64,000 bases of DNA from Candidatus Dojkabacteria bacterium (lineage in GTDB: Bacteria; Patescibacteriota; Dojkabacteria; SC72), in NCBI GenBank assembly GCA_035370405.1, contig DAOOVT010000001.1:485-64484 (forward strand). The letters are read 5' to 3'. The position numbers and the translations under genes are program-made. The notes under the pieces are model-generated. The model saw nothing but the letters and a program-made list of their open reading frames with translations. It ran no database searches and was not told the origin of the DNA. Positions 5,056-59,269 of this stretch are shown here, piece by piece. Every line of letters begins with the position of its first letter. The first letter of the stretch is position 1.

Positions 5056-6030
5056 CTAAATAAGAGATATAGTTAAAATATTTCCATCTAAATTCTTTAT
5101 TGAGAGCAGAATAGAAGTCAAGCATATTTTTTCAGGAATTCCACCCTTCCCTGTTTTTGTACTATATAATGTATCACCTTTTATATTTACTCCAAAGTAT
5201 TCTAAGACCGCTCTTATTTGATGCATCCTTCCTGTCTCTATTTTAATAATAAGCTCATTTTCAGAGATAGGTTTAATATATGTTAAAGAATATTTTGCTC
5301 CATTTCTAAAATATTTTGTGAACTTCATTTTCATTCTATTAGTTTCACTTCTTTTTATGTATCCCTCTACTTTTAACCATTGATCATCACATATAAATTT
5401 GTTCTTTTTCAGTTTACCAATTTCACTTTTTAAATTAAGATTATTCTTAGGAATATATTGGAGGAGTTGAGAATTATCCCTCTGATTATATTCTATCTGT
5501 GCATAATACACCTTCTGCACTAAATGATTTTCAAATTGATTTTGGAAATATCTTTGTGCTTTTTCATTCTTTGCAAACAGGATTAATCCAGAAACACCTT
5601 TATCAAGCCTGTGAATCACTCCACCTCTTTTAACTTTTGAATCAAATTCACCTTTTGCTTCCAGATATCCTTTTACATAGTTAGCCAATGTGTTTTGCTT
5701 ATTTCCAGAACCAGGATGTACAACTATCCCACTCTCTTTATTAATTACAAGACAATTTTCATCTTCATATATTATATCTAAATCCTTTTTCTGAGCTATC
5801 AGAGATTCTTCATTTGTTAAATTACTAACCAATCTTTTTAAATTTTCATAATCTATACTATATGTATCACCCTTCTTAAATTTGTATGATGGTTTTACTT
5901 CTCTATCATTCACTTTAAAAAATTTCACAAGATTTTCTGCGATAAAAGTCCTACTAAGAGCATTTTTTTCTAATTTCTCTTTTACGAAAACATCTGCTCT
6001 TTTTCCAATATTCTCATCGGTTATTTTCAT
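5056..6030 (-). CDS. RluA-family pseudouridine synthase (RluD-like) with an N-terminal S4-like region.
   Basis: Motifs GVIHRLDKGVSGLILFAKN and HPGSGNKQNTLANY are typical of RluA/RluD catalytic cores. Confidence 0.75.
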   Translation of the reverse strand: MKITDENIGKRADVFVKEKLEKNALSRTFIAENLVKFFKVNDREVKPSYKFKKGDTYSIDYENLKRLVSNLTNEESLIAQKKDLDIIYEDENCLVINKESGIVVHPGSGNKQNTLANYVKGYLEAKGEFDSKVKRGGVIHRLDKGVSGLILFAKNEKAQRYFQNQFENHLVQKVYYAQIEYNQRDNSQLLQYIPKNNLNLKSEIGKLKKNKFICDDQWLKVEGYIKRSETNRMKMKFTKYFRNGAKYSLTYIKPISENELIIKIETGRMHQIRAVLEYFGVNIKGDTLYSTKTGKGGIPEKICLTSILLSIKNLDGNILTISLI

Positions 6031-6869
6031 TTCTCTCTGGGTAATTTTATTGGCTTTCTAATATCATCTACAGAGACGTTTCTGACTGATGATAGCTTCT
6101 CTATTGTCACAGTCGCTTTTCTAGTATCAGCTATGTGGAAGAAAAGTCCCAAAAGAGACCAAGTAACAAAGGCTCCTAATCCTATTTTTTCTACATTCAA
6201 CATTTGTGAATTCATATATACTGTAATAATCACTGCTGTTGATATAACAACAAAAATAGAATCTAAGCAGACAAGTGCTTTCATTTCACCTAAACCTATG
6301 ATTGATTTGATTAAAATTGCCTTTACAATCCAAAAGACAAGAATTAGCACTATCATTATTAATCCTTGGGCAACCCATGTGTTATTTCCAGTTATTTTCC
6401 CTATTGAAAAAAAGGAGAACGCAAGAACTGTGAACGAAGATAGGTATATCGCAGGGAACAGATGACTCCATTTCCATTTTTTAACACGCAGAACCCACCA
6501 TGTACATACTAGACAAAATCCTAGAAGTAAAAACAGTATGTCTATCCCTAAATCCCATATTCTAAAAAATCTCCAAGGAAGAAGACGGAAGAGAAAGATT
6601 TCATTTCCATATCTCTCATATGGAAGCCAATACCAAATATATTTAGAGAACTCTCCCCAATTTCCAATAATGTAGAAGGCTCTTCCGAGTATTATTCCAG
6701 ATATAACTGAGATAAAAAAGGCGTCAAATACAGAAGAATTATTTTTTCTCGTTCTAGAACATTCCTTCCAAAATACATAAAGACATATGAATACTGTTAA
6801 AACAAAAAATGCAAGAGGACTCCAATTAGGAACAAATGATGCTATTTTTTGAGATATTTGCTCAAACAC
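6027..6869 (-). CDS. Polytopic membrane protein, possibly a divergent prolipoprotein diacylglyceryl transferase (Lgt-like).
   Basis: Multiple TM helices. LGRAFYIIGNW...LFRLLPWRFFRIWDLG resembles the Lgt GGRxGYVxxY...LFRVWDGG region, but the canonical GRLGNF signature is not evident. Confidence 0.35.
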   Translation of the reverse strand: MFEQISQKIASFVPNWSPLAFFVLTVFICLYVFWKECSRTRKNNSSVFDAFFISVISGIILGRAFYIIGNWGEFSKYIWYWLPYERYGNEIFLFRLLPWRFFRIWDLGIDILFLLLGFCLVCTWWVLRVKKWKWSHLFPAIYLSSFTVLAFSFFSIGKITGNNTWVAQGLIMIVLILVFWIVKAILIKSIIGLGEMKALVCLDSIFVVISTAVIITVYMNSQMLNVEKIGLGAFVTWSLLGLFFHIADTRKATVTIEKLSSVRNVSVDDIRKPIKLPREK

Positions 6870-6926
6870 GACTGCACAAAAACATTAGTTTAGTACAGTA
6901 ATAATACCATAATAAATTGATAAACA

Positions 6927-7673
6927 TTACCTATTTTTCTTCTTTTTTCTTTTCTTACGCTTTTTCTCTTTACTTGAAGGAACATTCACCGTATTTACTT
7001 CTGTATTTACTCCTACATTTTTTTCATCTTTATTTTTACTGACAAGGAAAATCGATCCTATTTTCGATGCAAATTCATTAAACTTTTCAGCTATTCCAAC
7101 TTCAGTTGCATATCTAATTCTTTTTGACTTAACAGCCTCTTGGACCTCCTCCTTTGATGTTTCAATTTGCTCTTTCATAACTTCCATTGTTGGAACAAGA
7201 TCAGGAGCAAATTCTGCATCATCTGCAATCGTACTTCCACAATTAGGACAATATGTGTTTCCTCTATCAACATATATTCCACAATGTGAACATTTCACTT
7301 TAAGCTCATACCTACAATTTGGACAATATATATACCCAGGAGCAAGTTGTGCCCCACACTGTGGACAATCTCCAAGTTCAGCAGTCTCATATTTAAGATA
7401 TCTTCTTTCTAAATCACCCCAATATATTTCTTCTATTGTACGACTTGGCCTTATGAGTAGATATATTATCAATCCAATTATATTTAATATTCCAACCAAC
7501 AACACATAACATATTTTTACAAATGTACTAGAAGACCTTTCGGAAGCATCAAACCAAACCCAATACAGTACGACAATCCAAAAAATCACCAGAATAATAC
7601 CAAGAAATTTTATAGCCGAATCAAAATTTATCTCTCCTATCGTATCAAAGAAATCTAGTATGAAATCCTCCAT
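6927..7673 (-). CDS. Membrane protein with a C-terminal zinc-ribbon domain.
   Basis: Two TM helices, then CPQCGAQL...CPNCRYEL...CSHCG...CPNCGS (four CxxC pairs) and a lysine-rich tail. The start is trimmed to the internal Met (MEDFILDFF) because the longer ORF overlaps tRNA-Leu. Confidence 0.45.
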   Translation of the reverse strand: MEDFILDFFDTIGEINFDSAIKFLGIILVIFWIVVLYWVWFDASERSSSTFVKICYVLLVGILNIIGLIIYLLIRPSRTIEEIYWGDLERRYLKYETAELGDCPQCGAQLAPGYIYCPNCRYELKVKCSHCGIYVDRGNTYCPNCGSTIADDAEFAPDLVPTMEVMKEQIETSKEEVQEAVKSKRIRYATEVGIAEKFNEFASKIGSIFLVSKNKDEKNVGVNTEVNTVNVPSSKEKKRKKRKKKKNR

Positions 7674-20762: not shown

Positions 20763-20809
20763 TCTCTCATACCATTACAATTTAGCTATCTCAGAATTTC
20801 TCATAAAAC

Positions 20810-20895
20810 GGAGAGACAGGGATTCGAACCCTGGGTACGGAAACCCGTACAACGGTTTTCAAGACCGTCCCTTTCGACCGCTCAGGCATCTCTCC
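20810..20895 (-). tRNA. tRNA-Ser (anticodon UGA).
   Basis: The reverse complement is GGAGAGA...ACGGT-CTTGAAA-ACCGT, a long variable arm, T-loop GTTCGAATC, acceptor TCTCTCC+G. Confidence 0.8.
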
Positions 20896-20913
20896 ACAAA
20901 CAGTGCAATTATA

Positions 20914-21897: not shown

Positions 21898-21939
21898 ATT
21901 GGTTGACTAATCATTACTACATTACATATTATATATATC

Positions 21940-23154
21940 ATGAAATCTACCCAAGTACATAAAATAATGAGTTTGTTTGTATCTCTCGCAGTACTTCCTA
22001 CACTCTTAATACCTGTACATGCAACTGATTTAAATTCTGCAAATTACAAAATTGTCGGAATAACAACAAATTCTGGTGGAGGCATTGCCAATTCAACTAA
22101 CTACAAATTAATGACAATAACAGGAGAAATATCTGCCAATCCAAGTAGTTACTCATCATCATACAAAATGAATTTAGATCCTTCTGCCAATTTTGTGGCA
22201 GAGATTCCAACCTTACAATGCTTTGAAACAAATACAGGAACAGGAGCTACTCAATGCACATCAGCACCAGCAGAAGTATTGAGCGGAGGTATGCAGGCTG
22301 TATGCGGACAGCCTGGATGCTACGATAGAGCAAGATTTGAAATAAATCCAATGACTAATCCTTCAGATACACTATATAGTGTAGAAATATCAACTGATAG
22401 TTTTGTCAGCGATATTAAGTGTATAAATGCCTCAACATTTACTCCTAAGACTGACTCTTGTAACATCAATGACTTTAGAACTGAGAGCTATTGGGAAAAT
22501 GAGCTATTTAATATTGTAGGACTTACATCGGGAACTACATACTATATTAGAGTAACTGCCCTTCATGGGGATTTTACTCAATCCAATTATTCAAAAACTT
22601 TGCAAGCGACAACATCCCCTGCTTCAATTACTTTTGATATTGATGTCGCAGATGTTAATGGAACTTCTGCAGAATCTAATTCACCCTACTCTATCTCCTT
22701 TTCAGGTTCAGATAAATTGACTTCAGGAGCTTTTGCGGTAACAGCACATAATTTAATATGGCTTGATTTAGATACTAATGCATATGGGGGAGCATCTGTT
22801 ATACAATTTGGCAAGAATGGTGGACTATACAGTCCAACTACTACATACAAAATAATTTCTGCTAATGAAGACCTTGATGTCATGAATGCAGAAGGTTTTG
22901 GATTTCAAAGTCACTATATTAATTTTACAAATAGCTCTAGTTTAACTGGAAGTATTACTGCAGAAGCCAATTATGCTGGTAGTGGAAATATTGTAGGAAT
23001 AATTGGACAAAATGCACTCCGTATATATCTAGCTGATGGAGCTATAGCAAATGGACGAATGGGAATTTATTTGAAGGCAAGAGCAGGAATGTCTGCTCCT
23101 CCAGCTACTGACTATGGAGAGGATATTTTCTTCACAGTTGTACCGTTATATTAA
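21940..23154 (+). CDS. Secreted protein of unknown function with short SxNYK repeats.
   Basis: Signal peptide MKSTQVHKIMSLFVSLAVLPTLLIPVHA. Repeats NSANYKIVG / NSTNYKLMT / SSYKMNL. It has its own promoter. Confidence 0.4.
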   Translation: MKSTQVHKIMSLFVSLAVLPTLLIPVHATDLNSANYKIVGITTNSGGGIANSTNYKLMTITGEISANPSSYSSSYKMNLDPSANFVAEIPTLQCFETNTGTGATQCTSAPAEVLSGGMQAVCGQPGCYDRARFEINPMTNPSDTLYSVEISTDSFVSDIKCINASTFTPKTDSCNINDFRTESYWENELFNIVGLTSGTTYYIRVTALHGDFTQSNYSKTLQATTSPASITFDIDVADVNGTSAESNSPYSISFSGSDKLTSGAFAVTAHNLIWLDLDTNAYGGASVIQFGKNGGLYSPTTTYKIISANEDLDVMNAEGFGFQSHYINFTNSSSLTGSITAEANYAGSGNIVGIIGQNALRIYLADGAIANGRMGIYLKARAGMSAPPATDYGEDIFFTVVPLY

Positions 23155-23217
23155 GAAATTTTGCCTCCCCCTTAGTAATTAGTAATTTAGTAATATTGTT
23201 AATACCACTACAAAAAT

Positions 23218-23246
23218 TTGACATCATACTCACCAATAGTATATAT
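23218..23246 (+). promoter_or_regulatory. Near-consensus sigma70-type promoter upstream of the 23285 gene.
   Basis: TTGACA, a 16-17 nt spacer, then TATATA/ATATAT, about 40 nt upstream of the ATG. A TTAGTAA x3 tandem mini-repeat precedes it. Confidence 0.5.
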
Positions 23247-23284
23247 TTTTAATATTAAATAAAATGTCTGCCTAAAATACGCAT

Positions 23285-24421
23285 ATGAAAAAGAAGAAGC
23301 TCCTCGGTAACTTCAAAGGGTTTCTAACTTTAGCCTTAGTGGCTATCCTTTTGACCAGTTCGTTTGTATTCAAATCAAATGCAAACGCTTTAACATCAGC
23401 CTATCTGTATCTAAGCCGAATGAAGGTAAATATTACGGGAGCAGGAGCAGATACGCTTGAATACGTATTGGCATTCTCTACTTCTCAGACTATTCCAACT
23501 GGCGGAACGGTTACTTTGACTTTTCCTGACGACGATGATGGATTTTGGTGTAAGACGGCTGGAGCATTAACCGTTACAGGAGTAACTTCATCTTCTTCTG
23601 ATCTAGCTGGTACAAATTGGGCTATTGATGCTGCTCTACCAGCTGCAACAACCTTAACCGCATCATGTACTAAAGGATCAGGTGCAGGATCCGCAGACAA
23701 GATCACTATATCAAGTGTTGGAGCAATTTCTACTAGTACCACATATGGAGTAAAGCTCGCTAATGGAACAACAGCTGGGGTACTTGGTACTGATGACACT
23801 GCAGGGAATCACAATGTAACAATAGAGGTTAGAAATGGTACAGTTTCTGATTCTTCTACATTTGGTATTCGACTTATTGCAGATGATAGGGTTGTCATAT
23901 CAGCTACAGTTTCTGCAACTCCGTCTGTAACTTGCTCACTGAGTACAAATACAGTGAATCTTGGTTCACTTTACCCAGGGGGAGCCTTCACAACAGGACA
24001 ACATACAATTTCAACAACTACATCCGATACTGCTGGTGGATATTACTGGGCTGTATATGGTACAGGAAATGGTACAGATGCTGGACTTTACAAGAGTTCT
24101 GCAACAACATATTTAATACCATCAACTGGTTCTACAACTGTAGACCTAAGAGGAGTTGGAACTGAAGGTTTTGGAATGACTGCGTCTGATCCTGATGCAG
24201 CTTCGTCTGCAACAGTTTCTGCTAACTTTAGTGATGGGACATTGGGAGTTTTTGGAGCTTTAGACCCCGGAGTTTCAGGAGCTAAGCTTCTTCTGTCTCA
24301 ACAAGGAGCGCAAACATCAGCTGAGTCGTCTACAATTACATATGGTGCCAAAGCAGGAGCTTCAGCACAAACTGGGTCATATCAAGAAACAGTGACATTT
24401 ATATGTGGTGGTTACTATTAG
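23285..24421 (+). CDS. Secreted Thr/Ser/Gly/Ala-rich surface protein.
   Basis: Sec-type signal peptide with an ANA cleavage site. Extremely T/S/G-rich mature region. No LPxTG, and no pilin-type Glu at +5. Confidence 0.4.
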   Translation: MKKKKLLGNFKGFLTLALVAILLTSSFVFKSNANALTSAYLYLSRMKVNITGAGADTLEYVLAFSTSQTIPTGGTVTLTFPDDDDGFWCKTAGALTVTGVTSSSSDLAGTNWAIDAALPAATTLTASCTKGSGAGSADKITISSVGAISTSTTYGVKLANGTTAGVLGTDDTAGNHNVTIEVRNGTVSDSSTFGIRLIADDRVVISATVSATPSVTCSLSTNTVNLGSLYPGGAFTTGQHTISTTTSDTAGGYYWAVYGTGNGTDAGLYKSSATTYLIPSTGSTTVDLRGVGTEGFGMTASDPDAASSATVSANFSDGTLGVFGALDPGVSGAKLLLSQQGAQTSAESSTITYGAKAGASAQTGSYQETVTFICGGYY

Positions 24422-24440
24422 ACTAATATGAGGCAAATAC

Positions 24441-25421
24441 ATGCAAATATTTTACATTAGAAAACTTCCAATTGTTGTACTGCCTCTATTCCTGATAACC
24501 TTTTTTGGTATACTTTCACCACTTAAGGTATTTGCACAAGAAGATGTATCAATAGGCATGTCACCAACATACCAGAATCTAAAACTACAGCCTGGTTCTA
24601 AATATACAGGGGAATTAGTAACTTGGAATCTCTCACAAGAGTCTGCAAAATACAAAATTCTTGTAAAAGGATTTAAACAAATAGAAAACACTCCTGGGAC
24701 TGCCGTTTTGCTATCTGATGAAGAGGAACAAAAAGCACTCTACTCTGCTGCCTCCTGGATAACTGTAAATAGAGATACCATAGAATTAGTTCCTAACAAA
24801 AATGAAAAGATACTTTATGAAATAAATGTTCCTCAAAATGCCACAAAGGGAGAATATCACGCAATGATATCTCTAATTTCGGAAAATTATGCAAAATCCC
24901 CCGACTCTGCAACATTTACAAATGTCTCCTCCGGTATGCCAATACTCATAAAAATTGGTGATAATTTTGTTGAAAGTGCTGAACTCATATCATTCAAAAC
25001 TACCAAAAACATATATGAAAAACCCTCAGTATCATTTACAACAATCATAAATAACACAGGAGACACACACATCTCTCCTACTGGAGAAATCGTCCTTACG
25101 AATATATTTAATAAAGAAATTGCACGAATTAAATTCAATGCAAATTCTCAAAGTCTCCTAAGAGACAATACAGGGAACTATACAACTCAATGGACAGACA
25201 AGCTCATCACAGAAAACAAACAGCTTGCAATTGGTCCAATCAAAGCAGAACTAATAGTTACATACAGAGAATTACAACCTGGCTTCGCTCCGCTAATTGC
25301 ACAAACCTCTTTCTATATAATTCCATGGAAATGGATCCTGCTATTTGCAATCGTAATAGTTTTAATAGTAGTATTAGTAAGAGTAAAAAAACATAAAAAA
25401 AGACTAAATTCACATAAATAG
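24441..25421 (+). CDS. Cell-surface protein with a signal peptide and a C-terminal TM anchor.
   Basis: Signal peptide ending VFAQED. C-terminal TM WILLFAIVIVLIVVLV followed by RVKKHKKR. The architecture resembles DUF916/DUF3324-type surface-complex proteins. Confidence 0.4.
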   Translation: MQIFYIRKLPIVVLPLFLITFFGILSPLKVFAQEDVSIGMSPTYQNLKLQPGSKYTGELVTWNLSQESAKYKILVKGFKQIENTPGTAVLLSDEEEQKALYSAASWITVNRDTIELVPNKNEKILYEINVPQNATKGEYHAMISLISENYAKSPDSATFTNVSSGMPILIKIGDNFVESAELISFKTTKNIYEKPSVSFTTIINNTGDTHISPTGEIVLTNIFNKEIARIKFNANSQSLLRDNTGNYTTQWTDKLITENKQLAIGPIKAELIVTYRELQPGFAPLIAQTSFYIIPWKWILLFAIVIVLIVVLVRVKKHKKRLNSHK

Positions 25422-26336
25422 TTGGAAATGTCCAAGAGAAAACTGCCATTGGCAATGCTAGTCCTTGCCTTCATCTTTGTATCAATCACAAAGGAGTCTT
25501 TTGCATCTATGCAACTCTCTCCATTCACAAATGAGGTAATCGTAACAAATCAGCAATCAATCAATGGACAATTAACACTCCATAATGATGAAAACAAAGA
25601 CATCACAATAACTCCAGTAGTCTTTCTCTACGACCCTCAAAATCAAAGAATGATTGATACCATAACTAACATCTTCGTACAAACAAAACAAAAAACATAT
25701 ACCGTTCCCTCTGGAGAAACAACACAAATAGACTACACAATAACGCCATCTAAAGACCTCCCTGATGGTACATACTTTAATTTAATCGTGCTAAAAACCA
25801 CTTTAGACGACAACTCATCATCTACTGAATCAAAAGTTGGCTTAACTGCAAATATGTCGCACCTTGTGGTAATGCATAAAATTACAGATGAACAAAAATC
25901 AGTACAGTACAATACACAAGTAGAAATCCCAAACCATGGAATTCCATTCCTAAAACCAATAAAGGTAACCTACACAATTCAAAACACCTCAGGATATGTA
26001 CTAAAACCTTCTGGTGAAATACAAATATTCAACAACAAATCACACCAGCAACCAATCTACCTTAAAATAAATGAACAAGAAGAAAAAGTATATCCAGGAG
26101 GAAAACTACAACAAGAGTTCACAGTAAGTCAATGGTCTATACAAGACATCTTTTTCCCAAGACAGATAAATGCATACTTCTACAATGGCATAGATCAAAA
26201 CTATAATCTTGTATCAATACAAGAAAAAGTAAACCCAGTAATACAAATCATTTTAATACTAATTCCAGTATTCATAATCTCCTTTATCATCATTCTCATC
26301 AAAGACCTGCAAAAAGGAAAGAAACAAAAAAGTTAA
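25422..26336 (+). CDS. Cell-surface protein with a signal peptide and a C-terminal TM anchor.
   Basis: Signal peptide MEMSKRKLPLAMLVLAFIFVSITKESFA. C-terminal TM VIQIILILIPVFIISFIIILI, then KDLQKGKKQKS. Same architecture as the upstream neighbour, and the two genes abut (25421/25422). Confidence 0.4.
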   Translation: MEMSKRKLPLAMLVLAFIFVSITKESFASMQLSPFTNEVIVTNQQSINGQLTLHNDENKDITITPVVFLYDPQNQRMIDTITNIFVQTKQKTYTVPSGETTQIDYTITPSKDLPDGTYFNLIVLKTTLDDNSSSTESKVGLTANMSHLVVMHKITDEQKSVQYNTQVEIPNHGIPFLKPIKVTYTIQNTSGYVLKPSGEIQIFNNKSHQQPIYLKINEQEEKVYPGGKLQQEFTVSQWSIQDIFFPRQINAYFYNGIDQNYNLVSIQEKVNPVIQIILILIPVFIISFIIILIKDLQKGKKQKS

Positions 26337-48942: not shown

Positions 48943-49158
48943 CTACTTTAATACTTCCTTTTGAAGCTTCTTGTAGCACTTCATACAAACAGTAAGTTTC
49001 GTAGGGATACCATCAACCTCCACTTCAACTGTACGAAGATTAGGCTTAAAGGCCCTCTTTGTTTTTGGAGCTTTGTATCTCCACCCAACAGAGTGCTTGT
49101 GCTGTATCCTATTACCAGACACTGTAGATTTTAAACATAAATCGCATCCTTTTGACAT
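48943..49158 (-). CDS. rpmB: 50S ribosomal protein L28.
   Basis: MSKGCDLCLKSTVSGNRIQHKHSVGWRYKAPKTKRAFKPNL, the L28 signature. Start trimmed to the internal Met. Confidence 0.8.
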   Translation of the reverse strand: MSKGCDLCLKSTVSGNRIQHKHSVGWRYKAPKTKRAFKPNLRTVEVEVDGIPTKLTVCMKCYKKLQKEVLK

Positions 49159-49224
49159 AGTCCGTGCATTATATATTAAAACAAGCGACGACGCAACCAT
49201 TTCATTCACATATCTGTATCACAG

Positions 49225-49246
49225 AATATACCCCACGGGGTATATT
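49225..49246. promoter_or_regulatory. A 22-bp near-perfect palindrome in the divergent rpmB / M50-protease promoter region; candidate operator.
   Basis: AATATACCCC-AC-GGGGTATATT, with 10-bp arms. Confidence 0.35.
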
Positions 49247-49279
49247 ATCTCTTCTTTTCTCTAATCAGCATAGTGTATA

Positions 49280-49903
49280 ATGACGACAACTATGTTTGAT
49301 ATCACATGGATGGTCTTTGCGTTACCATCAATAATTCTAGCGTCAGCAGTACACGAATATGCTCATGCTGCGACTGCATACAAGCTCGGAGATCCAACAG
49401 CAAAAGCAGAAGGAAGAATGACATTAAACCCCCTTGCTCATATCGACCCCATGGGTATTTTGTGTATGGTTCTTTTTCGATTCGGATGGAGCAAACCAGT
49501 TCCAATAAATGAAAATAATTTCACAAATAAAAAGCTTGGAATGGCACTCTCCGCTCTATCTGGACCAGTGTCAAATTTCATTCTCTTACTACTCACAGCC
49601 TTACTCAATTATTTACTAAAACCTAGTATCTCCTCTCCCATTTATCTTTTCCTATTTGTCTTCGCCATAGTAAATTGTTCTCTCTCCATATTCAATTTAA
49701 TTCCAATACCACCACTTGACGGGCATAAAATTGTCGGAGGATTACTGCCAAATCGCCTATCATACTATTGGGATGATCTTGAGAAATACTCTCTTCTACT
49801 AATCATAGTTCTTGTCCTTCCAATTTTTCCTTTTGGATCTTTAGCCTCATACATCATCTCATCGGCTATTGGAAATATAATGGTGCTACTAGGCTTTTAC
49901 TAA
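49280..49903 (+). CDS. Site-2-protease-family (M50B) zinc metalloprotease. The true start may be the Met at 49292 (leaderless).
   Basis: AVHEYAHAATAYKLGD (HExxH) ...GRMTLNPLAHIDPMG. Four TM helices. A TGTATAAT box at 49274-49281 overlaps the first ATG. Confidence 0.75.
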   Translation: MTTTMFDITWMVFALPSIILASAVHEYAHAATAYKLGDPTAKAEGRMTLNPLAHIDPMGILCMVLFRFGWSKPVPINENNFTNKKLGMALSALSGPVSNFILLLLTALLNYLLKPSISSPIYLFLFVFAIVNCSLSIFNLIPIPPLDGHKIVGGLLPNRLSYYWDDLEKYSLLLIIVLVLPIFPFGSLASYIISSAIGNIMVLLGFY

Positions 49904-50044
49904 AAGAATTACTAACGGCTCAAATATATTTGTTTTATCTTTCCCATCAATATATAATGAAGTTGCTCTGATTGGATATAGGCGGTTTCATAGCTCCATA
50001 TTGTAGAGCTTGGGATCCCAAACAGTGTAAATCGCTCAGTCCTG

Positions 50045-50079
50045 TGGGATTGAGTTGAGGGAACCCACTTGTTCTTTTT
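50045..50079 (+). terminator. GC-rich hairpin followed by a T-tract; possible intrinsic terminator or structured element upstream of the tRNA promoter.
   Basis: GTGGG-N15-CCCAC, then TTGTTCTTTTT. A TGGGATCCCA palindrome lies at about 50000. Confidence 0.3.
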
Positions 50080-50126
50080 GAGCTCTATGACTCTGCCTCC
50101 TTTCAGGGCATTCATTCCCTACTCTT

Positions 50127-50155
50127 TTGCATTGACTATTTCTCCATTGTATAAT
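50127..50155 (+). promoter_or_regulatory. Sigma70-type promoter for the tRNA-Thr/Tyr transcript.
   Basis: TTGCAT, a 17 nt spacer, then TATAAT (50150-50155), ending 16 nt upstream of the tRNA 5' end. Confidence 0.6.
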
Positions 50156-50171
50156 AGACTTCTTTCAGGAT

Positions 50172-50248
50172 GCCGAAGTAGCTCAGTTGGTCAGAGCAGC
50201 TGTTTTGTAAACAGCAGGTCAAGAGTCCGAGTCTCTTCTTCGGCTCCA
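50172..50248 (+). tRNA. tRNA-Thr (anticodon UGU), with an unusual C at T-loop position 55.
   Basis: Acceptor GCCGAAG/CTTCGGC. Anticodon stem GCTGT/ACAGC with loop TTTGTAA. CCA encoded. T-loop TCCGAGT instead of TTCGAxT. Confidence 0.7.
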
Positions 50249-50252
50249 TTGT

Positions 50253-50338
50253 GCAGAGATGGCGGAGCGGTCAAACGCGGTGGACTGTAAATCCACTCCC
50301 TTCGGGGTTCATTGGTTCGAATCCAATTCTCTGCACCA
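50253..50338 (+). tRNA. tRNA-Tyr (anticodon GUA).
   Basis: Acceptor GCAGAGA/TCTCTGC. Anticodon stem GTGGA/TCCAC with loop CTGTAAA. Long variable arm. T-loop TTCGAAT. CCA encoded. Confidence 0.8.
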
Positions 50339-50369
50339 TCTATTATATATGTAACTTTATCTTCATCCC

Positions 50370-50378
50370 TGATATAAT
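50370..50378 (+). promoter_or_regulatory. Extended -10 promoter (TGaTATAAT) immediately upstream of tRNA-Thr(GGU).
   Basis: TGATATAAT ends 9 nt before the tRNA 5' end. Confidence 0.5.
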
Positions 50379-50387
50379 CGATTCACT

Positions 50388-50461
50388 GCTGGATTAGCTC
50401 AGTTGGTTAGAGCACATTCATGGTAAGAATGAGGTCCTGAGTTCGACTCTCAGATCCAGCT
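50388..50461 (+). tRNA. tRNA-Thr (anticodon GGU).
   Basis: Acceptor GCTGGAT/ATCCAGC. Anticodon stem CATTC/GAATG with loop ATGGTAA. T-loop TTCGACT. CCA not encoded. Confidence 0.8.
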
Positions 50462-50578
50462 CTCTCTTTAAGAAAAGAATATCGTACGAAATTATTTGAC
50501 CTGTGGAAATATTTCCAATATAATACGGCGATATTTCCCAATATACATAAATAAATCGTAATTTGCACAACTGTAAAA

Positions 50579-50743
50579 ATGGCTAAAGTAAAAAGGGACA
50601 TAATAGCTTTTAAGTGCTCAGAGTGTGGAGAAAGGAATTACACTCAGTTTAAAACTAAGAATGTCAAAGAAAAAATAGAAAAAAGAAAGTACTGTCCAGT
50701 ATGTAAAAAACATACAGTACACAAGGAGACCAAAATAAAATAA
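50579..50743 (+). CDS. rpmG: 50S ribosomal protein L33 (54 aa; below the ORF-track length cut-off).
   Basis: Translation MAKVKRDIIAFKCSECGERNYTQFKTKNVKEKIEKRKYCPVCKKHTVHKETKIK. The CxxC...CxxC zinc ribbon is typical of L33. Confidence 0.8.
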   Translation: MAKVKRDIIAFKCSECGERNYTQFKTKNVKEKIEKRKYCPVCKKHTVHKETKIK

Positions 50744-50766
50744 ATGGCTTGGCTCTTTACCAAGAT

Positions 50767-50842
50767 GGGCTCATAGTTTCAATTGGTAAAACAGCGGTCT
50801 CCAAAACCGTAGTTCACCGTTCGAGTCGGTGTGGGCCTGCCA
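50767..50842 (+). tRNA. tRNA-Trp (anticodon CCA).
   Basis: Acceptor GGGCTCA/TGGGCCT with two G-U pairs. Anticodon stem GCGGT/ACCGT with loop CTCCAAA. T-loop TTCGAGT. CCA encoded. Confidence 0.75.
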
Positions 50843-50858
50843 AAAAGAATATAGAGTG

Positions 50859-51032
50859 ATGAAAATAATAAAAAATATAATAAATGAAGCGAAGAACACC
50901 AAATGGCCTTCAATGAGAGATGTAGCCACTATGACAATATATACACTAATCGTCTGTGGTATAATTTCCCTAATTATGGCAGGGCTAGACTTAGTCTTAG
51001 CAAAATTAAGAGACCTATTCCTTAACATGTAA
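50859..51032 (+). CDS. secE: Preprotein translocase subunit SecE.
   Basis: A 57 aa single-TM protein (KWPSMRDVATMTIYTLIVCGIISLIMAGLDL), immediately upstream of nusG. The start is placed after tRNA-Trp. Confidence 0.75.
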   Translation: MKIIKNIINEAKNTKWPSMRDVATMTIYTLIVCGIISLIMAGLDLVLAKLRDLFLNM

Positions 51033-51042
51033 ATTAAAAAAA

Positions 51043-51606
51043 ATGAGCAAAAAGATTGAGAAAAAAGAAAAGAAAGAGAACCCAAATGCAAAATGGTATG
51101 TACTAAACATAAGAACAGGATACGAGAACAGTGTTCAAAAAGAAATAATGCAAAGAGCAACAGCAACTGGAATGCAAGATAAAATAGTAGACATGCTAGT
51201 TCCCATACAAAAGAAGATCGTTGTAAAGAAAGGGAAACAAGATGTAAAAGAAGAAAAAATATTTCCAGGCTATGTTCTCATTAAAATGGAGCTTGATAAC
51301 GCAACATGGGACTTAGTTCAAAACACAGAAGGAGTCAGAGGATTTGTAAAAACAGACAGATATCCCAAGCCATTAGCAGAATCAGAAGTAAAAGCAATAA
51401 CAAAATTCATGGAAATTGAACAACCTTCATATCAAAGCTCATTTAGTATTGGAGAAGCAGTTAAAATTACTGATGGTGCATTTGCTGACTTCATAGGAAG
51501 CGTACAGGAAATTGACACTACCAAGGGTAAGATAAAAGTCCTCATCTCATTCTTAGGTAGAGAAGCTCCTGTAGAATTAGAGCTTTCTCAAGTTTCTAAA
51601 CTTTAG
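51043..51606 (+). CDS. nusG: Transcription termination/antitermination factor NusG.
   Basis: NGN domain (WYVLNIRTGYENSV). KOW motif (IGEAVKITDGAFADFIGSVQEID). Confidence 0.9.
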   Translation: MSKKIEKKEKKENPNAKWYVLNIRTGYENSVQKEIMQRATATGMQDKIVDMLVPIQKKIVVKKGKQDVKEEKIFPGYVLIKMELDNATWDLVQNTEGVRGFVKTDRYPKPLAESEVKAITKFMEIEQPSYQSSFSIGEAVKITDGAFADFIGSVQEIDTTKGKIKVLISFLGREAPVELELSQVSKL

Positions 51607-51627
51607 TAAAATTAAAAATATTCAGAT

Positions 51628-52056
51628 ATGGCAAAAGAAATTAAAAAAATAATAAAGATAACTATCCCTGCAGGAATGGCTACAATGGCACCCCCCATAG
51701 GCCCTACCCTAGCCCCATATGGGATAAACACACAAGATTTTTGTGCTCAATTCAATGAAAAAACAAAAGAAAATGGTGGAATATTAACACCAGTCGTTTT
51801 AACTATCTATGAAGACAGAAGTTTTGATTTCATACTCAAAACTCCACCAACTTCTGAATTAATTAGAAGAGAATTAAAAATTAAGAAAGGATCAGGAAAA
51901 CCAAATCTTGAAAAGGTAGGGAAAATTTCAAAAGAACAAATTGCAAAGATTGCAGAGATAAAGATGCCAGACTTAAACACATCAGACCCTAAACAGGCAG
52001 CAAAAATAATTGCTGGTACTGCTAAACAGATGGGCGTTGAGACTGATATTAAATAA
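51628..52056 (+). CDS. rplK: 50S ribosomal protein L11.
   Basis: IKITIPAGMATMAPPIGPTLAPYGIN, the L11 signature. Confidence 0.9.
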   Translation: MAKEIKKIIKITIPAGMATMAPPIGPTLAPYGINTQDFCAQFNEKTKENGGILTPVVLTIYEDRSFDFILKTPPTSELIRRELKIKKGSGKPNLEKVGKISKEQIAKIAEIKMPDLNTSDPKQAAKIIAGTAKQMGVETDIK

Positions 52057-52076
52057 TAATTGTTACCAAAATAACT

Positions 52077-52760
52077 ATGAAAAGAGGAAAAAAATATAAA
52101 AAGATAACACAAGATTTGGATAGAAGTGCTTCATACACACTACAACAAGGAATAAAAAAGATTAAGACCCTCTCCTACTCCAAATTTCCAGGAACACTTG
52201 AATTACACATTGATTTGAAAATACCAAAAGATAAAGATCCAAAATCCTTAAAAGGAGCGGTTTCACTTCCCAATGCTACAAATACTAAAAACATTAAAGT
52301 CGCAGTATTTTGTACTCCTGATAAAGAAGAAGAAGCAAAAAGTGCAGGAGCAGATTTTGTTGGATTAGATAGCTTAATAAAAGAGATAAAAGAAAATGGC
52401 CCTCACTTTGATGTTGCAATTGCAACACCATCTGTTATGCCTAAAATAGCTGTCTTAGGAAAAGAATTAGGTCCAAAAGGCTTAATGCCAAATCCTAAAA
52501 ATGGAACAGTAACAGAAAATATTTCCAAAGCTGTTTCCGAATACAAAAAAGGAAAACAAACATTCGCATGTGATCCATCTGGAGTAGTACATATGGCAGT
52601 AGGATCATTAGACATGGAAGATCAAAAATTAGAAGAAAATATCCATACAGCAATATCAGCAATTTCTGAAGTTGTTGGGAAATCTTATGATCAAATTATA
52701 CAGAGAATGTACATCTGTCCTACAATGGGACCAAGTATAAAGATCAATTATTCCAGATAG
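52077..52760 (+). CDS. rplA: 50S ribosomal protein L1.
   Basis: 227 aa. FPGTLELHIDLKIPKDKD...AVFCTPDKEEEAKSAGADFVG. Confidence 0.9.
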   Translation: MKRGKKYKKITQDLDRSASYTLQQGIKKIKTLSYSKFPGTLELHIDLKIPKDKDPKSLKGAVSLPNATNTKNIKVAVFCTPDKEEEAKSAGADFVGLDSLIKEIKENGPHFDVAIATPSVMPKIAVLGKELGPKGLMPNPKNGTVTENISKAVSEYKKGKQTFACDPSGVVHMAVGSLDMEDQKLEENIHTAISAISEVVGKSYDQIIQRMYICPTMGPSIKINYSR

Positions 52761-52874
52761 CCTTACAACCCTCTTCTACAGCAAACATATCATAGGGAGT
52801 TTACAAGTTTGGCAATACAAACTACAATTATTCTGTCTGCTCTTACAAAACAGAAAAAATGAAAGGAGGCTCAA

Positions 52875-53087
52875 TTGTTAGCTAAAGGAAAGTGGATACT
52901 CATTTATGATAATGGATATAGATATCTAGTATCAATCGCTGGAGATCATTATGAAAGACTAGAAATCATATCAGTAATATCGGAAAACAGTGGTATTGCA
53001 AGAGATGTTAATACTGGAAAGTATTATGAGTACAATAATGAATCTGGTTCTCTCTTTCTCAAAGAATCATTTATCCCATCGGATTAA
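52875..53087 (+). CDS. Small 70-aa hypothetical protein (TTG start) inserted between rplA and rplJ.
   Basis: A perfect Shine-Dalgarno AAAGGAGG at 52862-52869, 5 nt before a TTG start. An ORF of 70 codons. No recognisable family. Confidence 0.4.
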   Translation: MLAKGKWILIYDNGYRYLVSIAGDHYERLEIISVISENSGIARDVNTGKYYEYNNESGSLFLKESFIPSD

Positions 53088-53106
53088 ACTGTTTTGTAGA
53101 GCACTC

Positions 53107-53166
53107 TTAGTGAGTCTAATAAGAAATGTAAATTCATTTTTACTTCTGCCCTATTAGACTCACTAA
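53107..53166 (+). terminator. A 15-bp perfect-stem hairpin (attenuator, terminator, or rplJ-leader structure).
   Basis: TTAGTGAGTCTAATA (53107-53121) pairs with TATTAGACTCACTAA (53152-53166), with a 30-nt loop. A T-rich tract follows. Confidence 0.4.
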
Positions 53167-53204
53167 TAATATTCTGTGTATTTGTTGATTGATATTAAAT
53201 CATC

Positions 53205-53213
53205 TGATATAAT
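53205..53213 (+). promoter_or_regulatory. Extended -10 promoter (TGaTATAAT) upstream of rplJ.
   Basis: TGATATAAT lies 88 nt upstream of the rplJ ATG. An internal L10 promoter at this position is known from E. coli. Confidence 0.45.
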
Positions 53214-53301
53214 GCACGAGACTTACCGAAGAAATAAGGTACAAAAATAAATCCTTACGAGGCAAGTGTATGTTCAACTATAATTATTAACTATAACAAA
53301 T

Positions 53302-53823
53302 ATGGCGAAAAGTCACTTACAAAAGGTTGATTTACTAGATAAATATAAACATATCATTCAGAATAAAAAAGGCTACCTACTAGTCAATTCTGACAAAGTC
53401 AATGCTTCTGATGTTGCAAAATTAAAAATACAACTAAAGGAGGCTAATGCTGACTATGCAGTTTTGAAAAACACAGTCTTTAAAATAGCTCTTCAAGAGA
53501 CTAACCAACCACTGCAAACACAGGAAGTAGATGGACCTACAGCAATCATATATTTTGATGAAGATCCTACTTCTCCAGCGAAATTAATAAAGCAGATTCA
53601 AAAAGAAAAAGGCCTTCTCTCAGCAAAATTTGGTGTATTTGAAAATGAATTCCTTTCAAGTGAAAGAGTTATGGAATTAGCAGATATTCCATCGAGAGAT
53701 GTTCTACTTTCAAGGCTTGCAGGATCTATGAATGCATCATTAACAGGATTTATGAACACAATCACAGGAAATATCAAAGGTCTAACTTTGGTTCTTAAAG
53801 GCATTTCTGAAAAAAGTGCTTAA
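53302..53823 (+). CDS. rplJ: 50S ribosomal protein L10.
   Basis: 173 aa, MAKSHLQKVDLLDKYK...YLLVNSDKVNASDVAKLK. Precedes rplL. Confidence 0.9.
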   Translation: MAKSHLQKVDLLDKYKHIIQNKKGYLLVNSDKVNASDVAKLKIQLKEANADYAVLKNTVFKIALQETNQPLQTQEVDGPTAIIYFDEDPTSPAKLIKQIQKEKGLLSAKFGVFENEFLSSERVMELADIPSRDVLLSRLAGSMNASLTGFMNTITGNIKGLTLVLKGISEKSA

Positions 53824-53859
53824 TTTAGAAACAATTAATTAACTTAATTCTTTAAAAAT

Positions 53860-54261
53860 ATGGCAGACGAAGCAAAAACACTACCCGAATTGTCAGAAAA
53901 TGGCAAAAAGGTTCTCGAAATAGTCGAAAAAATGACTGTTTTAGAACTCTCTGATTTGGTAAAAGTCATGGAAGACAAATTCGGAGTATCAGCCTCTGCA
54001 CCTGTTGCTATTGCAGCACCAGTTGAGGCTGCACCTGCTGAAGAGGAGAAAACAATGTTCAACATTCTCCTTAAAGATGCAGGAGCAAACAAGATTGGAG
54101 TCATAAAAGCAGTAAGAGAAGTAACAGAACTCGGCTTAAAAGAGGCAAAAGATCTTGTTGATGCTGCACCTCAAGTAGTTAAGGAAAATGTCAAGAAAGA
54201 GGATGCTGAAGCTATAAAAGCAAAATTTGAAGAAGCAGGAGCAACTGTTGAATTACAGTAA
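53860..54261 (+). CDS. rplL: 50S ribosomal protein L7/L12.
   Basis: An Ala/Glu-rich hinge ([17 protein letters not shown]). C-terminal domain [27 protein letters not shown]. Confidence 0.95.
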
Positions 54262-54287
54262 GCTACACTACTCTACTTTAAAGAATG

Positions 54288-54320
54288 AAGGGACTGTTTT
54301 TGGACAGTCCTTTTCTTTAT
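54288..54320 (+). terminator. Rho-independent terminator after rplL.
   Basis: AAGGGACTGT-TTTTGG-ACAGTCCTTT stem-loop (10 bp including one G-U pair), followed by TTTTCTTTATT. Confidence 0.7.
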
Positions 54321-54336
54321 TAAATACTAATAAACC

Positions 54337-54366
54337 TTGCTTCTTTCATATTCATTGGAATATAAT
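54337..54366 (+). promoter_or_regulatory. Sigma70-type promoter for the 7TM/ATP-grasp operon.
   Basis: TTGCTT, an 18 nt spacer, then TATAAT (54361-54366), 47 nt upstream of the ATG at 54413. A second TGATATAGC box lies at 54401-54409. Confidence 0.5.
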
Positions 54367-54412
54367 TACCTGTGTGATTTTGATATCTAAAATTATCATC
54401 TGATATAGCGAG

Positions 54413-55081
54413 ATGACATATTCCCCATTTACTTCATGGATTCTAGATAATGGTGTCTCTCAACAGACATTAGAACTTCTAGTATCTATAACTGTTGTTG
54501 CAACAATCGTAAGCATATTCAGATACATTTTTGGAGGAAAATCATATGGTATATATTCCCCAATTATTTTAGCAATAGCATACTCATATACTGGTCTTAA
54601 ATATGGACTAGCCATAACTGCCGTTGTCATAATAACAACCCTTGTCTCCTACTCGGTACTGAAAAAGATAAGAATGCATTACATTACAAGAATTGCAATA
54701 AATTACTGCCTTCTAGTAATTGCAATTCTCATGCTCATAATAGCTACCTACAAATATGATTTGGGCTTAAAAAATACATCTATGATATCCCCTCTAGCAC
54801 TTGTATCCATTGCAACTCTTTCTGATTTCTTTGTAAAACAATTTACCCAAAAATCCTTAAAAACTTCATTCTCTCCTCTCATAGGAACAATCGTAATAGC
54901 ATCAATCGGTTGGTACATAATAACTTCTGAGCAAATATCACAGTACATGATTAACAACCTCTGGATAATACCTCTACTCATATTCATAAATATACTCATA
55001 GGACAATTCAAAGAACTTAGAATTAAGGAAATCCTCAGATTTAATTCCATAGTTGGGAACAAGGACAATGCTCAAAAGTAA
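54413..55081 (+). CDS. Seven-transmembrane membrane protein, the membrane partner of an alpha-L-glutamate-ligase-like system.
   Basis: Seven predicted TM helices in 222 aa. The 3' end overlaps the start of the downstream ATP-grasp gene by 29 nt. No transglutaminase-like domain is present. Confidence 0.55.
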   Translation: MTYSPFTSWILDNGVSQQTLELLVSITVVATIVSIFRYIFGGKSYGIYSPIILAIAYSYTGLKYGLAITAVVIITTLVSYSVLKKIRMHYITRIAINYCLLVIAILMLIIATYKYDLGLKNTSMISPLALVSIATLSDFFVKQFTQKSLKTSFSPLIGTIVIASIGWYIITSEQISQYMINNLWIIPLLIFINILIGQFKELRIKEILRFNSIVGNKDNAQK

Positions 55082-56525
55082 AGGTTACAAAGAAATATTA
55101 GGTATCAACAGAAGGAATCAGGAATACATCCGTCCGTATAACTCTGCTAGAGCTAAAAATATTGCAGACAACAAAATTCTTACAAAAAAAATACTAACTG
55201 AAAATGGAATCTTAACACCTAAAATTTACAAAGTTGTAAAAGACAGAAAACAATTAGAATTTTTGAATTGGGATTCACTTCCTAAAAGTTTTGTAATTAA
55301 ACCTAACAAAGGCACAGGAGGCAATGGCATCATTATATTCTACGGGAAGAAAAAAGGACAAACAGCTTGGATAAGACCAAACGGAACTGTAATGTCTAAA
55401 TATGACATCTCCTTACATATTGCAAATATTCTTGATGGAAGATACTCCATGGGAAATAAAAAAGATACAGCAATCATAGAAGAAAGAGTCAAAACAGACC
55501 CTTTTCTTAAGCAATATTCATACAAAGGAGTTCCTGATATAAGGGTAATATGCTTCAAAGGAGTACCCATAATGGCCATGATACGAATTCCAACTAAAAG
55601 ATCAAATGGAACTGCAAATCTACATTCTGGAGCAATATGCACTGGTATAGATATAGCTACAGGAATTACCACATATTCTATGCAAATGGATACAAAAAGT
55701 ATATTTAGTGATGTATATGAAGATATAGAATATACTACAGACCTAGAAGATAATAAAAAGCTCAGTGGTATAACTATTCCTGATTGGAACAAAATACTCG
55801 AAATAGCTCTAAAGTGCCAAAAGGTTACAAAACTTGGATACATTGGAGTAGACATATCAATAGATGCAGAAAAAGGTCCTGTTGTTTTTGAATTAAACGC
55901 TAGACCAGGATTAGGAATACAAGTCGCCAATAAAGCAGGATTAAGATCTAGACTAGAACTAATAAAAGAGGTTGATGTAAAAAGTATCAGACACGGTATA
56001 AAGATTGCAAAAGATCTTTTTGGTGGAGAAATTGAGGAGAGTATAGAATCAATAAGTGGAAGAAAAGTAGTTAATATTATTGAAAAGGTAACATTATTTG
56101 ATAGACAAGCACTTTCTGTCAAAAAGAAAAATAAGAATAATAAACAACCCTCTAAGGTTTTTATGGATACAAGTATTCTCACATCTAGAATTACAGAAGC
56201 AACAGCAAATAGAATTGGTTTCCTTTCAACCACAAAATATTTTAATTCCTTAAACGTTCCTGAAAAATTCAATACACTTAAAGATGCTCAGAAGTATATT
56301 GATGAAAATATTCAAGCACTGACATTAGAAGAAGGAATAAAGAGGATTGCCAAAATTGCAGATGGCAATGATGTGAAGATACGCCCTGTAATAGAAATAT
56401 CTATGGAAATAGCTGAACAGGTTAGATCTCTCGATGTTATAATCGTCCCAGATTTAGAGTATCCTATATCTATGGGAAGAAATGAATTGAAAGGATATTT
56501 AATTGATACCACACATACTTTTTAA
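55053..56525 (+). CDS. Alpha-L-glutamate-ligase-like (RimK-related, TIGR02291-like) ATP-grasp enzyme fused to a C-terminal retropepsin-like (RimB/DUF785-like) domain.
   Basis: The N-terminal half has ILGINRRNQEYIRPYN...FVIKPNKGTGGNGIIIF...YKGVPDIRVICFKGVPIMAMIRIPTKRSNGTANLHSGAICTGID...ELNARPGLGIQVANKAGLRSRLELIKE. This matches my memory of Pseudomonas/Vibrio alpha-L-glutamate ligase-like proteins. The C-terminal approximately 170 aa has VFMDTSILTSRITEA and IRPVIEISMEIAEQVRSLDVIIVPDLEYPISMGRNELKGYLID, matching the retropepsin-like putative zinc protease family. Confidence 0.65.
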   Translation: MGTRTMLKSKGYKEILGINRRNQEYIRPYNSARAKNIADNKILTKKILTENGILTPKIYKVVKDRKQLEFLNWDSLPKSFVIKPNKGTGGNGIIIFYGKKKGQTAWIRPNGTVMSKYDISLHIANILDGRYSMGNKKDTAIIEERVKTDPFLKQYSYKGVPDIRVICFKGVPIMAMIRIPTKRSNGTANLHSGAICTGIDIATGITTYSMQMDTKSIFSDVYEDIEYTTDLEDNKKLSGITIPDWNKILEIALKCQKVTKLGYIGVDISIDAEKGPVVFELNARPGLGIQVANKAGLRSRLELIKEVDVKSIRHGIKIAKDLFGGEIEESIESISGRKVVNIIEKVTLFDRQALSVKKKNKNNKQPSKVFMDTSILTSRITEATANRIGFLSTTKYFNSLNVPEKFNTLKDAQKYIDENIQALTLEEGIKRIAKIADGNDVKIRPVIEISMEIAEQVRSLDVIIVPDLEYPISMGRNELKGYLIDTTHTF

Positions 56526-56527
56526 AT

Positions 56528-57520: not shown

Positions 57521-57527
57521 TACAAAA

Positions 57528-59234: not shown

Positions 59235-59269
59235 ACAAACATAATTAATTTATTAGGAAATATAAATCT

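Follow-up and report, generated by a model that had tools for sequence, protein, structure and literature searches.

A conserved four-gene cluster for predicted surface proteins in Candidatus Dojkabacteria encodes distant relatives of WxL-interacting proteins

The 64,000-nucleotide stretch of contig DAOOVT010000001.1 analysed here (Candidatus Dojkabacteria bacterium, assembly GCA_035370405.1; "the window") carries four consecutive plus-strand genes at 21940–26336, referred to as g1 to g4, which form an island between housekeeping genes on the minus strand [Table 1]. Their exact and near matches are proteins of Candidatus Dojkabacteria (WS6, a Candidate Phyla Radiation, or CPR, lineage) from digester and other metagenomes, and every database record seen is a "hypothetical protein" without a Pfam domain. 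Scans of the four proteins against NCBIfam and PHROGs likewise returned nothing useful. An earlier note on this DNA, made from the letters alone, described the genes as a surface-protein cluster with Sec signal peptides throughout. Inspection by eye agrees with this: each N-terminus begins with an n-region that contains K/R, continues with a hydrophobic h-region and closes with an AxA-like site, with predicted cleavage between VHA and T in g1, ANA and L in g2, VFA and Q in g3, and SFA and S in g4. The orthologues all show the same Sec-type N-terminal layout.

A scan of species-representative genomes gave 46 loci from as many Dojkabacteria species-level genomes. At all 46, the order g1-g2-g3-g4 on a single strand is kept as far as the contig extends. 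The best conserved of the four proteins is g2, with 42–92% identity to the window protein (mostly 45–73%); the corresponding range for g4 is 29–81% (mostly 29–51%). The ATG start of g4 is backed by its orthologues, which begin MSKRKL or MPKRKL.

Table 1. Coordinates of the cluster genes, their domains and regulatory sites (window positions, unless a locus is named; aa, amino acids; pI, isoelectric point)
Feature	Position	Strand	Description
g1 promoter-like site	21903..21932	+	TTGACT-N18-TATTAT; -10 box ends 7 nt before g1 ATG
g1	21940..23154	+	404 aa, predicted secreted; mature ~40 kDa, pI 4.4; candidate variable adhesin subunit
g1 N-terminal repeat module (aa 29-80)	22024..22179	+	S-x-(N/S)-Y-K x3, ~20 aa spacing
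g2 promoter	23218..23247	+	TTGACA-N16-TATATA (= N18-TATATT, 11/12); inside 130-nt g1-g2 spacer
g2	23285..24421	+	378 aa, predicted secreted, Thr/Gly/Ser/Ala-rich; mature ~34 kDa, pI 4.3; candidate major surface subunit
g2 C-terminal shared domain (aa 205-378)	23897..24418	+	Cys217, Cys374; terminal motif Y-x-(D/E)-T-(L/I/V)-T-(F/Y)-x-C-G-G-Y-(Y/F)
g3	24441..25421	+	326 aa, WxLIP-like type I membrane protein
g3 low-confidence loop (aa 148-163) with the final, conserved strand of domain 1 (aa 164-172, SGMPILIKI)	24882..24956	+	candidate strand-donating element toward g1/g2
g4	25428..26336	+	302 aa from ATG; TTG at 25422 also possible, giving 304 aa
g1 variants with Laminin_G_3 insertion	L017:111-1994, L027:3842-5740, L034:3710-5653, L035:3736-5640, L048:3758-5674		

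The last two proteins had been likened to the anchored DUF916/DUF3324-type components of Gram-positive WxL/Csc surface complexes, and their layout agrees with this. In g3, the predicted signal peptide is followed by a DUF916-like domain (aa ~33–175), a DUF3324-like domain (aa ~176–294), a transmembrane (TM) helix (aa 296–318) and a basic tail. g4 has a predicted signal peptide, two beta domains, a TM helix and a basic tail. The C-terminal anchor described earlier is thus found in both proteins as a hydrophobic helix (KD 2.8–3.2) preceding a K/R-rich tail. This is the architecture of a WxL-interacting protein (WxLIP), i.e., a signal peptide, DUF916 and DUF3324 Ig-like domains, and a C-terminal TM helix. 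g3 and g4 are also paralogous to each other (BLASTP 24% over 225 aa, E 4e-4; hhalign 86%, E 5e-6), with g4 as the more divergent WxLIP-like protein.

In the Pfam scan, g3 gives a match to PF06030 (WxLIP_PGBD, formerly DUF916) that lies below the gathering threshold (E 6.5e-5; 23.4 bits versus 27.3), and such a sub-threshold match is seen in 61 of the 62 family members. PF06030 does not match g4, and none of the 62 members matches PF11797 (WxLIP_HBD); neither g3 nor g4 therefore reaches the Pfam gathering thresholds for the WxLIP domains. Among the families toward which the earlier note had pointed, PF06030 was accordingly detected for g3 at this level, and PF11797, PF13731 (WxL) and the S-layer/SLH families gave no match. 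With respect to the PGBD motif NQIDKxxxYFDLK, only its second half is recognizable (TYQNLKLQPG in g3 versus YFDLKMAPG), while the NQIDK half is absent.

For profile comparisons, reference WxL clusters were taken from plasmids of Enterococcus, Bacillus, Listeria, Lactiplantibacillus, Lactococcus, Pediococcus and Pontibacillus. A full-length hhalign comparison of the g4 family with WxLIPs gave 96.5%, but the signal peptide and the TM helix inflate this value, and it was discarded. After these segments had been trimmed, g3/g4 scored 14–50% against WxLIPs, with the g4 family at 14–28%. A robust link based on the ectodomains only was reached once intermediates had been added, namely the g3-like proteins of four distant metagenomic loci (L054, L055, L056 and L066). 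These intermediates align with the g3 ectodomain at 99.7%, with the g4 ectodomain at 97.4% (E 1.5e-11) and with genuine WxLIP ectodomains at 95.6% (E 1e-8, 213 columns). Moreover, g3 together with the intermediates matches WxLIPs at 93.6% (E 2e-7) over 217 columns covering both domains, and the reversed control gives 0.1%. The g3 family profile finds no match among Protein Data Bank (PDB) sequences, and plain HMMER does not reveal the WxLIP link to 9i1y. Taken together with the structural comparison, these data support the assignment of g3 and g4 as distant relatives of WxLIPs.

The best single bridge to the canonical WxLIPs is the g3-like protein at L055:5179-6201 (27.7 bits to a WxLIP ectodomain hidden Markov model), the C-terminus of which is hydrophilic without a clear TM helix and basic tail, unlike other family members. 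At L051:1299-2370, the WxLIP-like gene is split into two overlapping open reading frames (ORFs) of 153 and 216 aa; a frameshift, a pseudogene or an assembly error is possible.

The structural comparison also relates g3 to PapD-like chaperones. In the predicted structure, aa 154–161 form the sole low-confidence segment of the g3 ectodomain, and this segment precedes the SGMPILIKI strand, in and near which G165, P167, L169 and G173 are invariant. The loop and last strand [Table 1] occupy the position of the F1-G1 loop and the G1 donor strand of PapD-like chaperones. Ig-like folds, for which the earlier note had suggested a check, are predicted for g3 and, as described below, for g2.

The predicted secreted proteins g1 and g2 are likewise related to each other. 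The g2 protein is predicted to comprise two all-beta Ig-like domains (N, aa ~36–204; C, aa ~205–378) and has the terminus YQETVTFICGGYY. In g1, the predicted signal peptide (aa 1–28) is followed by repeats (aa 33–76), a Cys-rich/fn3-like middle part and a C-terminal domain (aa ~225–404) ending in YGEDIFFTVVPLY. The latter is homologous to the ~170-aa C-domain of g2 (hhalign 82%, E 1e-5, 133 columns). A search with the g2 profile against 1.84 billion representative proteins returned only 161 relatives, and no match was obtained among PDB sequences. Where relatives carry the C-domain, it lies at the extreme C-terminus in 55 of 70, and across them its terminal motif reads (E/P)AG-x-Y-x-(D/E)-T-(L/I/V)-T-(Y/F)-x-(C/A)-x-G-x-(Y/F). 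Residues Cys217 and Cys374 of g2 covary in the family (both present in 54, neither in 16, discordant in 3), which indicates a disulfide that joins the first strand of the C-domain to the last; the domain is thus probably closed by a disulfide bond. Judged by sequence, the C-domain common to g1 and g2 is a new domain, positioned where canonical clusters have the WxL domain. Relatives of g2 also occur as fusions with fn3, Big_1, CarboxypepD_reg, SpaA-like and HINT modules, which are typical of modular surface proteins.

In some relatives, the C-domain is not terminal and a complete g2-like two-domain module is N-terminal instead. It is followed by a pretoxin-HINT/intein-like domain in P0364 (689 aa), by fn3 and an FGE-sulfatase-like domain in P0373 (732 aa), and by a long extension in P0382 (2159 aa).

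Whether the shared C-domain is itself a WxL domain was addressed with Dojkabacteria-only profiles, a broadened profile of 70 relatives, and WxL proteins of both the lactic acid bacteria (LAB) and the Bacillales type; none of these comparisons was significant. Neither g1 nor g2 matches PF13731 in the Pfam scan, and against 15 LAB/Bacillales WxL proteins the C-domains give hhalign E-values of 0.2–0.3, the same as the controls. With the broadened C-domain profile, only the last 25 columns, i.e., the last two strands, line up in register with Y-x3-(L/I/V)-T-W-x-L, the distal motif of WxL; this alignment scores 19.7 versus 8.9–12.7 for 20 column shuffles, but its HH-suite probability is only 1.7%. 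The last WxL profile comparison took in WxL proteins of the Bacillales only. The dual Trp-x-Leu motif that marks the WxL domain (160–190 aa) is absent: W-x-L does not occur in g1, and g2 contains only WAI and WAV. Moreover, the WxL chain 9i25_A is not among the structural matches listed. By eye, the C-domain and WxL share a collinear order of motifs (a first hairpin with Trp, G-x-G, and the terminal Y...T-x-T-aromatic), which is only suggestive. On these grounds, g1 and g2 do not qualify as WxL proteins; the C-domain may be distantly homologous to WxL. The interpretation first placed on the cluster is hence supported in part, for g3 and g4 as WxLIP-type proteins; no test was positive for g1 and g2 as WxL proteins.

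The genomic neighborhood of C-domain genes bears on which proteins act together. At five distant loci (L051, L054, L055, L056 and L066), the gene for a C-domain protein lies directly 5′ of a g3-like gene; the GC content of L051 and L054–L056 is 39–57%, and these loci are therefore taken not to be Dojkabacteria. Small (212–240 aa) as well as large (814–1185 aa) C-domain proteins adjoin g3-like genes, and, as in WxL clusters, the partner domain is terminal. At L066, a 987-aa protein ends in the C-domain, and nearby a 212-aa protein consisting of the C-domain only is followed immediately by a WxLIP-like gene. This layout resembles the canonical clusters that were fetched, in which genes for a large and a small WxL protein are upstream of the WxLIP gene. 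The association supports, at the level of gene order, the C-domain protein and the g3-like protein as a functional pair.

PMC10599100 requires two WxL proteins and one or more WxLIPs for a WxL cluster, and describes confident AlphaFold models in which a disordered DUF916 hairpin turns into a strand that completes the WxL sandwich. A WxL chain together with EfmWxLIP1 is present in PDB entry 9i25. PMC9772566 assigns more than 91% of WxL proteins to Firmicutes, and almost all of them to Bacilli. Comparison with the WxL/Csc clusters of Bacilli (PMC10599100, PMC9772566, PMC1534035) reveals a common plan: a membrane-anchored, two-Ig-domain WxLIP-type protein of ~300–360 aa with signal peptide, C-terminal TM helix and basic tail, and secreted partners that are encoded just upstream, come in small and large versions and share a domain at the extreme C-terminus. 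In addition, Y-x-x-T-(L/I/V)-T-aromatic at the end of the Dojkabacteria domain aligns in register with the distal motif of WxL. However, the Dojkabacteria partners have no recognizable WxL domain (no dual Trp-x-Leu, no PF13731), and the covarying Cys pair of the g1/g2-type domain is found in none of the 15 WxL proteins sampled. The Dojkabacteria cluster also has two WxLIP paralogues instead of one, both below Pfam thresholds and without the NQIDK half-motif, and the host is a CPR bacterium. As to frequent but nonessential companions of WxL clusters, no LPXTG motif was found in g1–g4 and no sortase in the flanks. The search of the literature library returned no paper that mentions DUF916/DUF3324 together with CPR bacteria.

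Among the reference clusters, those of pXO1-like plasmids of the Bacillus cereus group (L064, which is B. anthracis pXO1, L068 and L070) have the small WxL and WxLIP genes directly 3′ of a CpaF/VirB11 ATPase gene and several genes for ~67-aa proteins. A large WxL gene directly follows the WxLIP gene in L068 and also in L069, a conjugative B. thuringiensis plasmid. These contexts suggest that WxL clusters are linked to conjugation or mating adhesion.

Two genes of the Dojkabacteria cluster are preceded by promoter-like sites. The site upstream of g1 (TTGACT-N17/18-TAT(C/T/G)AT) scores at least 10/12 in 33 of 35 species, and in most of them its -10 box ends 5–8 nt upstream of the ATG (loci L006–L048, upstream of g1). 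A -10 box this close to the start codon implies a leaderless or near-leaderless g1 mRNA, which would make this a conserved feature of a gene for a secreted protein in Dojkabacteria. The near-consensus TTGACA-N16/17-TATATA that had been noted before the second gene is there with an N16 spacer [Table 1] and is conserved: 21 of 28 species have a TTGACA-N16-18-TAxxxT site of at least 10/12 in the g1-g2 spacer, and its -10 box mostly ends 36–47 nt before the g2 ATG. Across the whole region, promoter-like sites are no commoner than in shuffles (14 versus 19.8), and it is the conservation across species by which both intergenic promoters are judged to be real. The gaps between g2 and g3 (19 nt) and between g3 and g4 (0–6 nt) are too short for g3 and g4 to have promoters of their own. 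The earlier idea of individual strong promoters thus holds for g1 and g2 and not for g3 and g4. The likely transcription units are g1 alone and g2-g3-g4, with read-through possible.

As the earlier note had remarked, g2 is extremely Thr/Ser/Gly-rich: T, G, S and A account for 15.9, 12.4, 11.9 and 11.6% of its residues, and Thr, Gly, Ser and Ala together for 52%. Mature g1 and g2 are acidic (pI 4.3–4.4), while g3 is basic (pI 9.0). An acidic, Thr/Ser/Gly/Ala-rich protein with very high conservation and a strong conserved promoter, in a cluster found at every Dojkabacteria locus sampled, would suit an S-layer or another envelope lattice, with g2 as an abundant coat protein that self-assembles, g3/g4 as its hold on the membrane and g1 in an accessory part. 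We consider this quite improbable: at 34 kDa g2 is small for such a protein, neither Pfam nor NCBIfam gives a match to SLH or another S-layer family, and the fusions of its relatives to adhesin-type modules (fn3, Big_1, SpaA, CarboxypepD_reg, HINT) fit modular adhesins better than lattices.

The SxNYK repeats ascribed to the first gene are present in g1 as SANYK (residue 33), STNYK (residue 52) and SSSYK (residue 72), and these positions are invariant or nearly so (alignment A4). A 240-aa protein encoded at the distant 57% GC locus L056 contains the triple S-x-(N/S)-Y-x-(I/L/M) module as well, so the repeats form a genuine conserved unit rather than noise of low complexity. All 316 homologues of g1 are from Dojkabacteria. 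In several species, g1 is ~630–650 aa long owing to a ~230-aa PF13385 (Laminin_G_3, lectin-like) insertion after the N-terminal part [Table 1]. The lectin-like insert could also be read as part of a complex that binds or captures polysaccharide or another substrate instead of a host cell, the role first proposed for the Csc clusters of L. plantarum; a function in carbohydrate utilization is put forward in PMC1534035, and the sample sources have Dojkabacteria as fermenters in digesters. Lectin-like domains suit cell adhesion equally well, however, and the cluster, flanked by housekeeping genes on the opposite strand, has no linked gene for a glycoside hydrolase or a transporter. Substrate capture is therefore regarded as very improbable.

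On the g1/g2 side, the structural comparison brings up pilins and adhesins, with modest scores (CsuA/B, CupE, Fim/Pap/CFA subunits, MSCRAMMs, integrin leg domains and BslA). Together with the PapD-like fold of g3, they bring to mind a surface fibre (pilus) of the chaperone-assisted donor-strand type. In this scenario, g2 would form the shaft by strand exchange, g1 would be the tip adhesin, and g3 and g4 would be membrane-tethered PapD-like chaperones or base anchors; the cell being monoderm, an usher would not be needed. No usher-like gene was found in the cluster or its flanks, and there is no outer membrane. However, in contrast to the soluble chaperones of chaperone-usher pili (PapD/FimC/CsuC), g3 and g4 are TM-anchored and the resemblance is one of fold with no sequence similarity; an incomplete Ig fold is not evident in g2. 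In comparisons with donor-strand fibres, both TasA-type and archaeal TasA-like, the scores for the Dojkabacteria proteins are low; Peptidase_M73/TasA is matched neither in Pfam nor in NCBIfam, and the cluster has no gene for a SipW-type signal peptidase or other peptidase. A pilus of this kind is, in our view, unlikely. A bolder version holds that WxLIP-type proteins in general are membrane-tethered PapD-like chaperone-anchors. A hitherto unrecognized, usher-free monoderm strand-complementation system, in Dojkabacteria and other uncultured lineages, would then build a fibre or array of g2 tipped by g1 as the Dojkabacteria host-attachment organelle, which we regard as decidedly unlikely.

Somewhat more probably than otherwise, in our judgment, the cluster encodes a non-covalent cell-surface complex, a divergent sister of the Gram-positive WxL/Csc clusters, in which g3 and g4 tether g2 and g1 and the likely function is adhesion. 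Against the background of the gene content, its conservation, the g3/g4–WxLIP homology, the shared C-domain and the two promoters, we infer that g3/g4 and g1/g2 pair physically. After Sec export, g3 and g4 would stay in the cell's own membrane via the C-terminal TM helix, with the basic tail inside. The C-domain of the secreted, acidic g1 and g2, a predicted beta-sandwich with a probable disulfide, would stand in for the WxL domain, and each WxLIP-like protein would capture the C-domain of its partner via beta-strand complementation. What is donated might be the flexible loop together with the final strand of the first WxLIP-like domain, as in the WxLIP–WxL complex and in PapD-like chaperones. 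The outcome would be surface display of g2 as the major subunit and of g1 as a variable subunit carrying the SxNYK module and sometimes the lectin-like insert, and the role would be adhesion to a host cell or substrate. Its highest conservation, its own promoter and its duplication in one genome (tandem copies at L020:4577-5704 and 5833-6960) make g2 look like the major subunit; the variants with a lectin-like insert make g1 look like the variable adhesin.

To our knowledge, how CPR/Patescibacteria attach to hosts is largely unknown, except for the type IV pili of Saccharibacteria. As far as sequence comparison goes, the novelty lies in a system that resembles WxL clusters, is fixed in a CPR lineage, and has duplicated WxLIPs that are highly divergent as well as a partner domain that is either different or diverged beyond recognition. 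An unannotated Dojkabacteria cluster is thereby connected to a Gram-positive surface system that is amenable to experiments and for which an entry for the complex has just been deposited (9i25). It also provides candidates for studies of adhesion, with g2 as a major surface antigen, g1 as a variable adhesin and g3/g4 as anchors. Moreover, it extends the WxLIP fold far beyond Bacilli and suggests that a WxLIP can have a partner other than a WxL domain, a point of relevance to the working of the WxL clusters themselves.

With respect to the surroundings of the cluster, an ABC ATPase gene and a tRNA-Ser gene are upstream, and genes for RNase HII, CysRS, RecR, YbaB and DnaX are downstream on the opposite strand. 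The tRNA-Ser(TGA) gene (20808–20896, minus strand) lies between genes for an NTP-transferase and the ABC ATPase, ~1 kb upstream of the cluster. At locus L046, a similar tRNA-derived spurious ORF is directly 5′ of g1. Further along the window, at ~49000–60300, there is a second block of plus-strand genes, where GC skew is near zero and AT skew is strongly positive, unlike in the remaining window.

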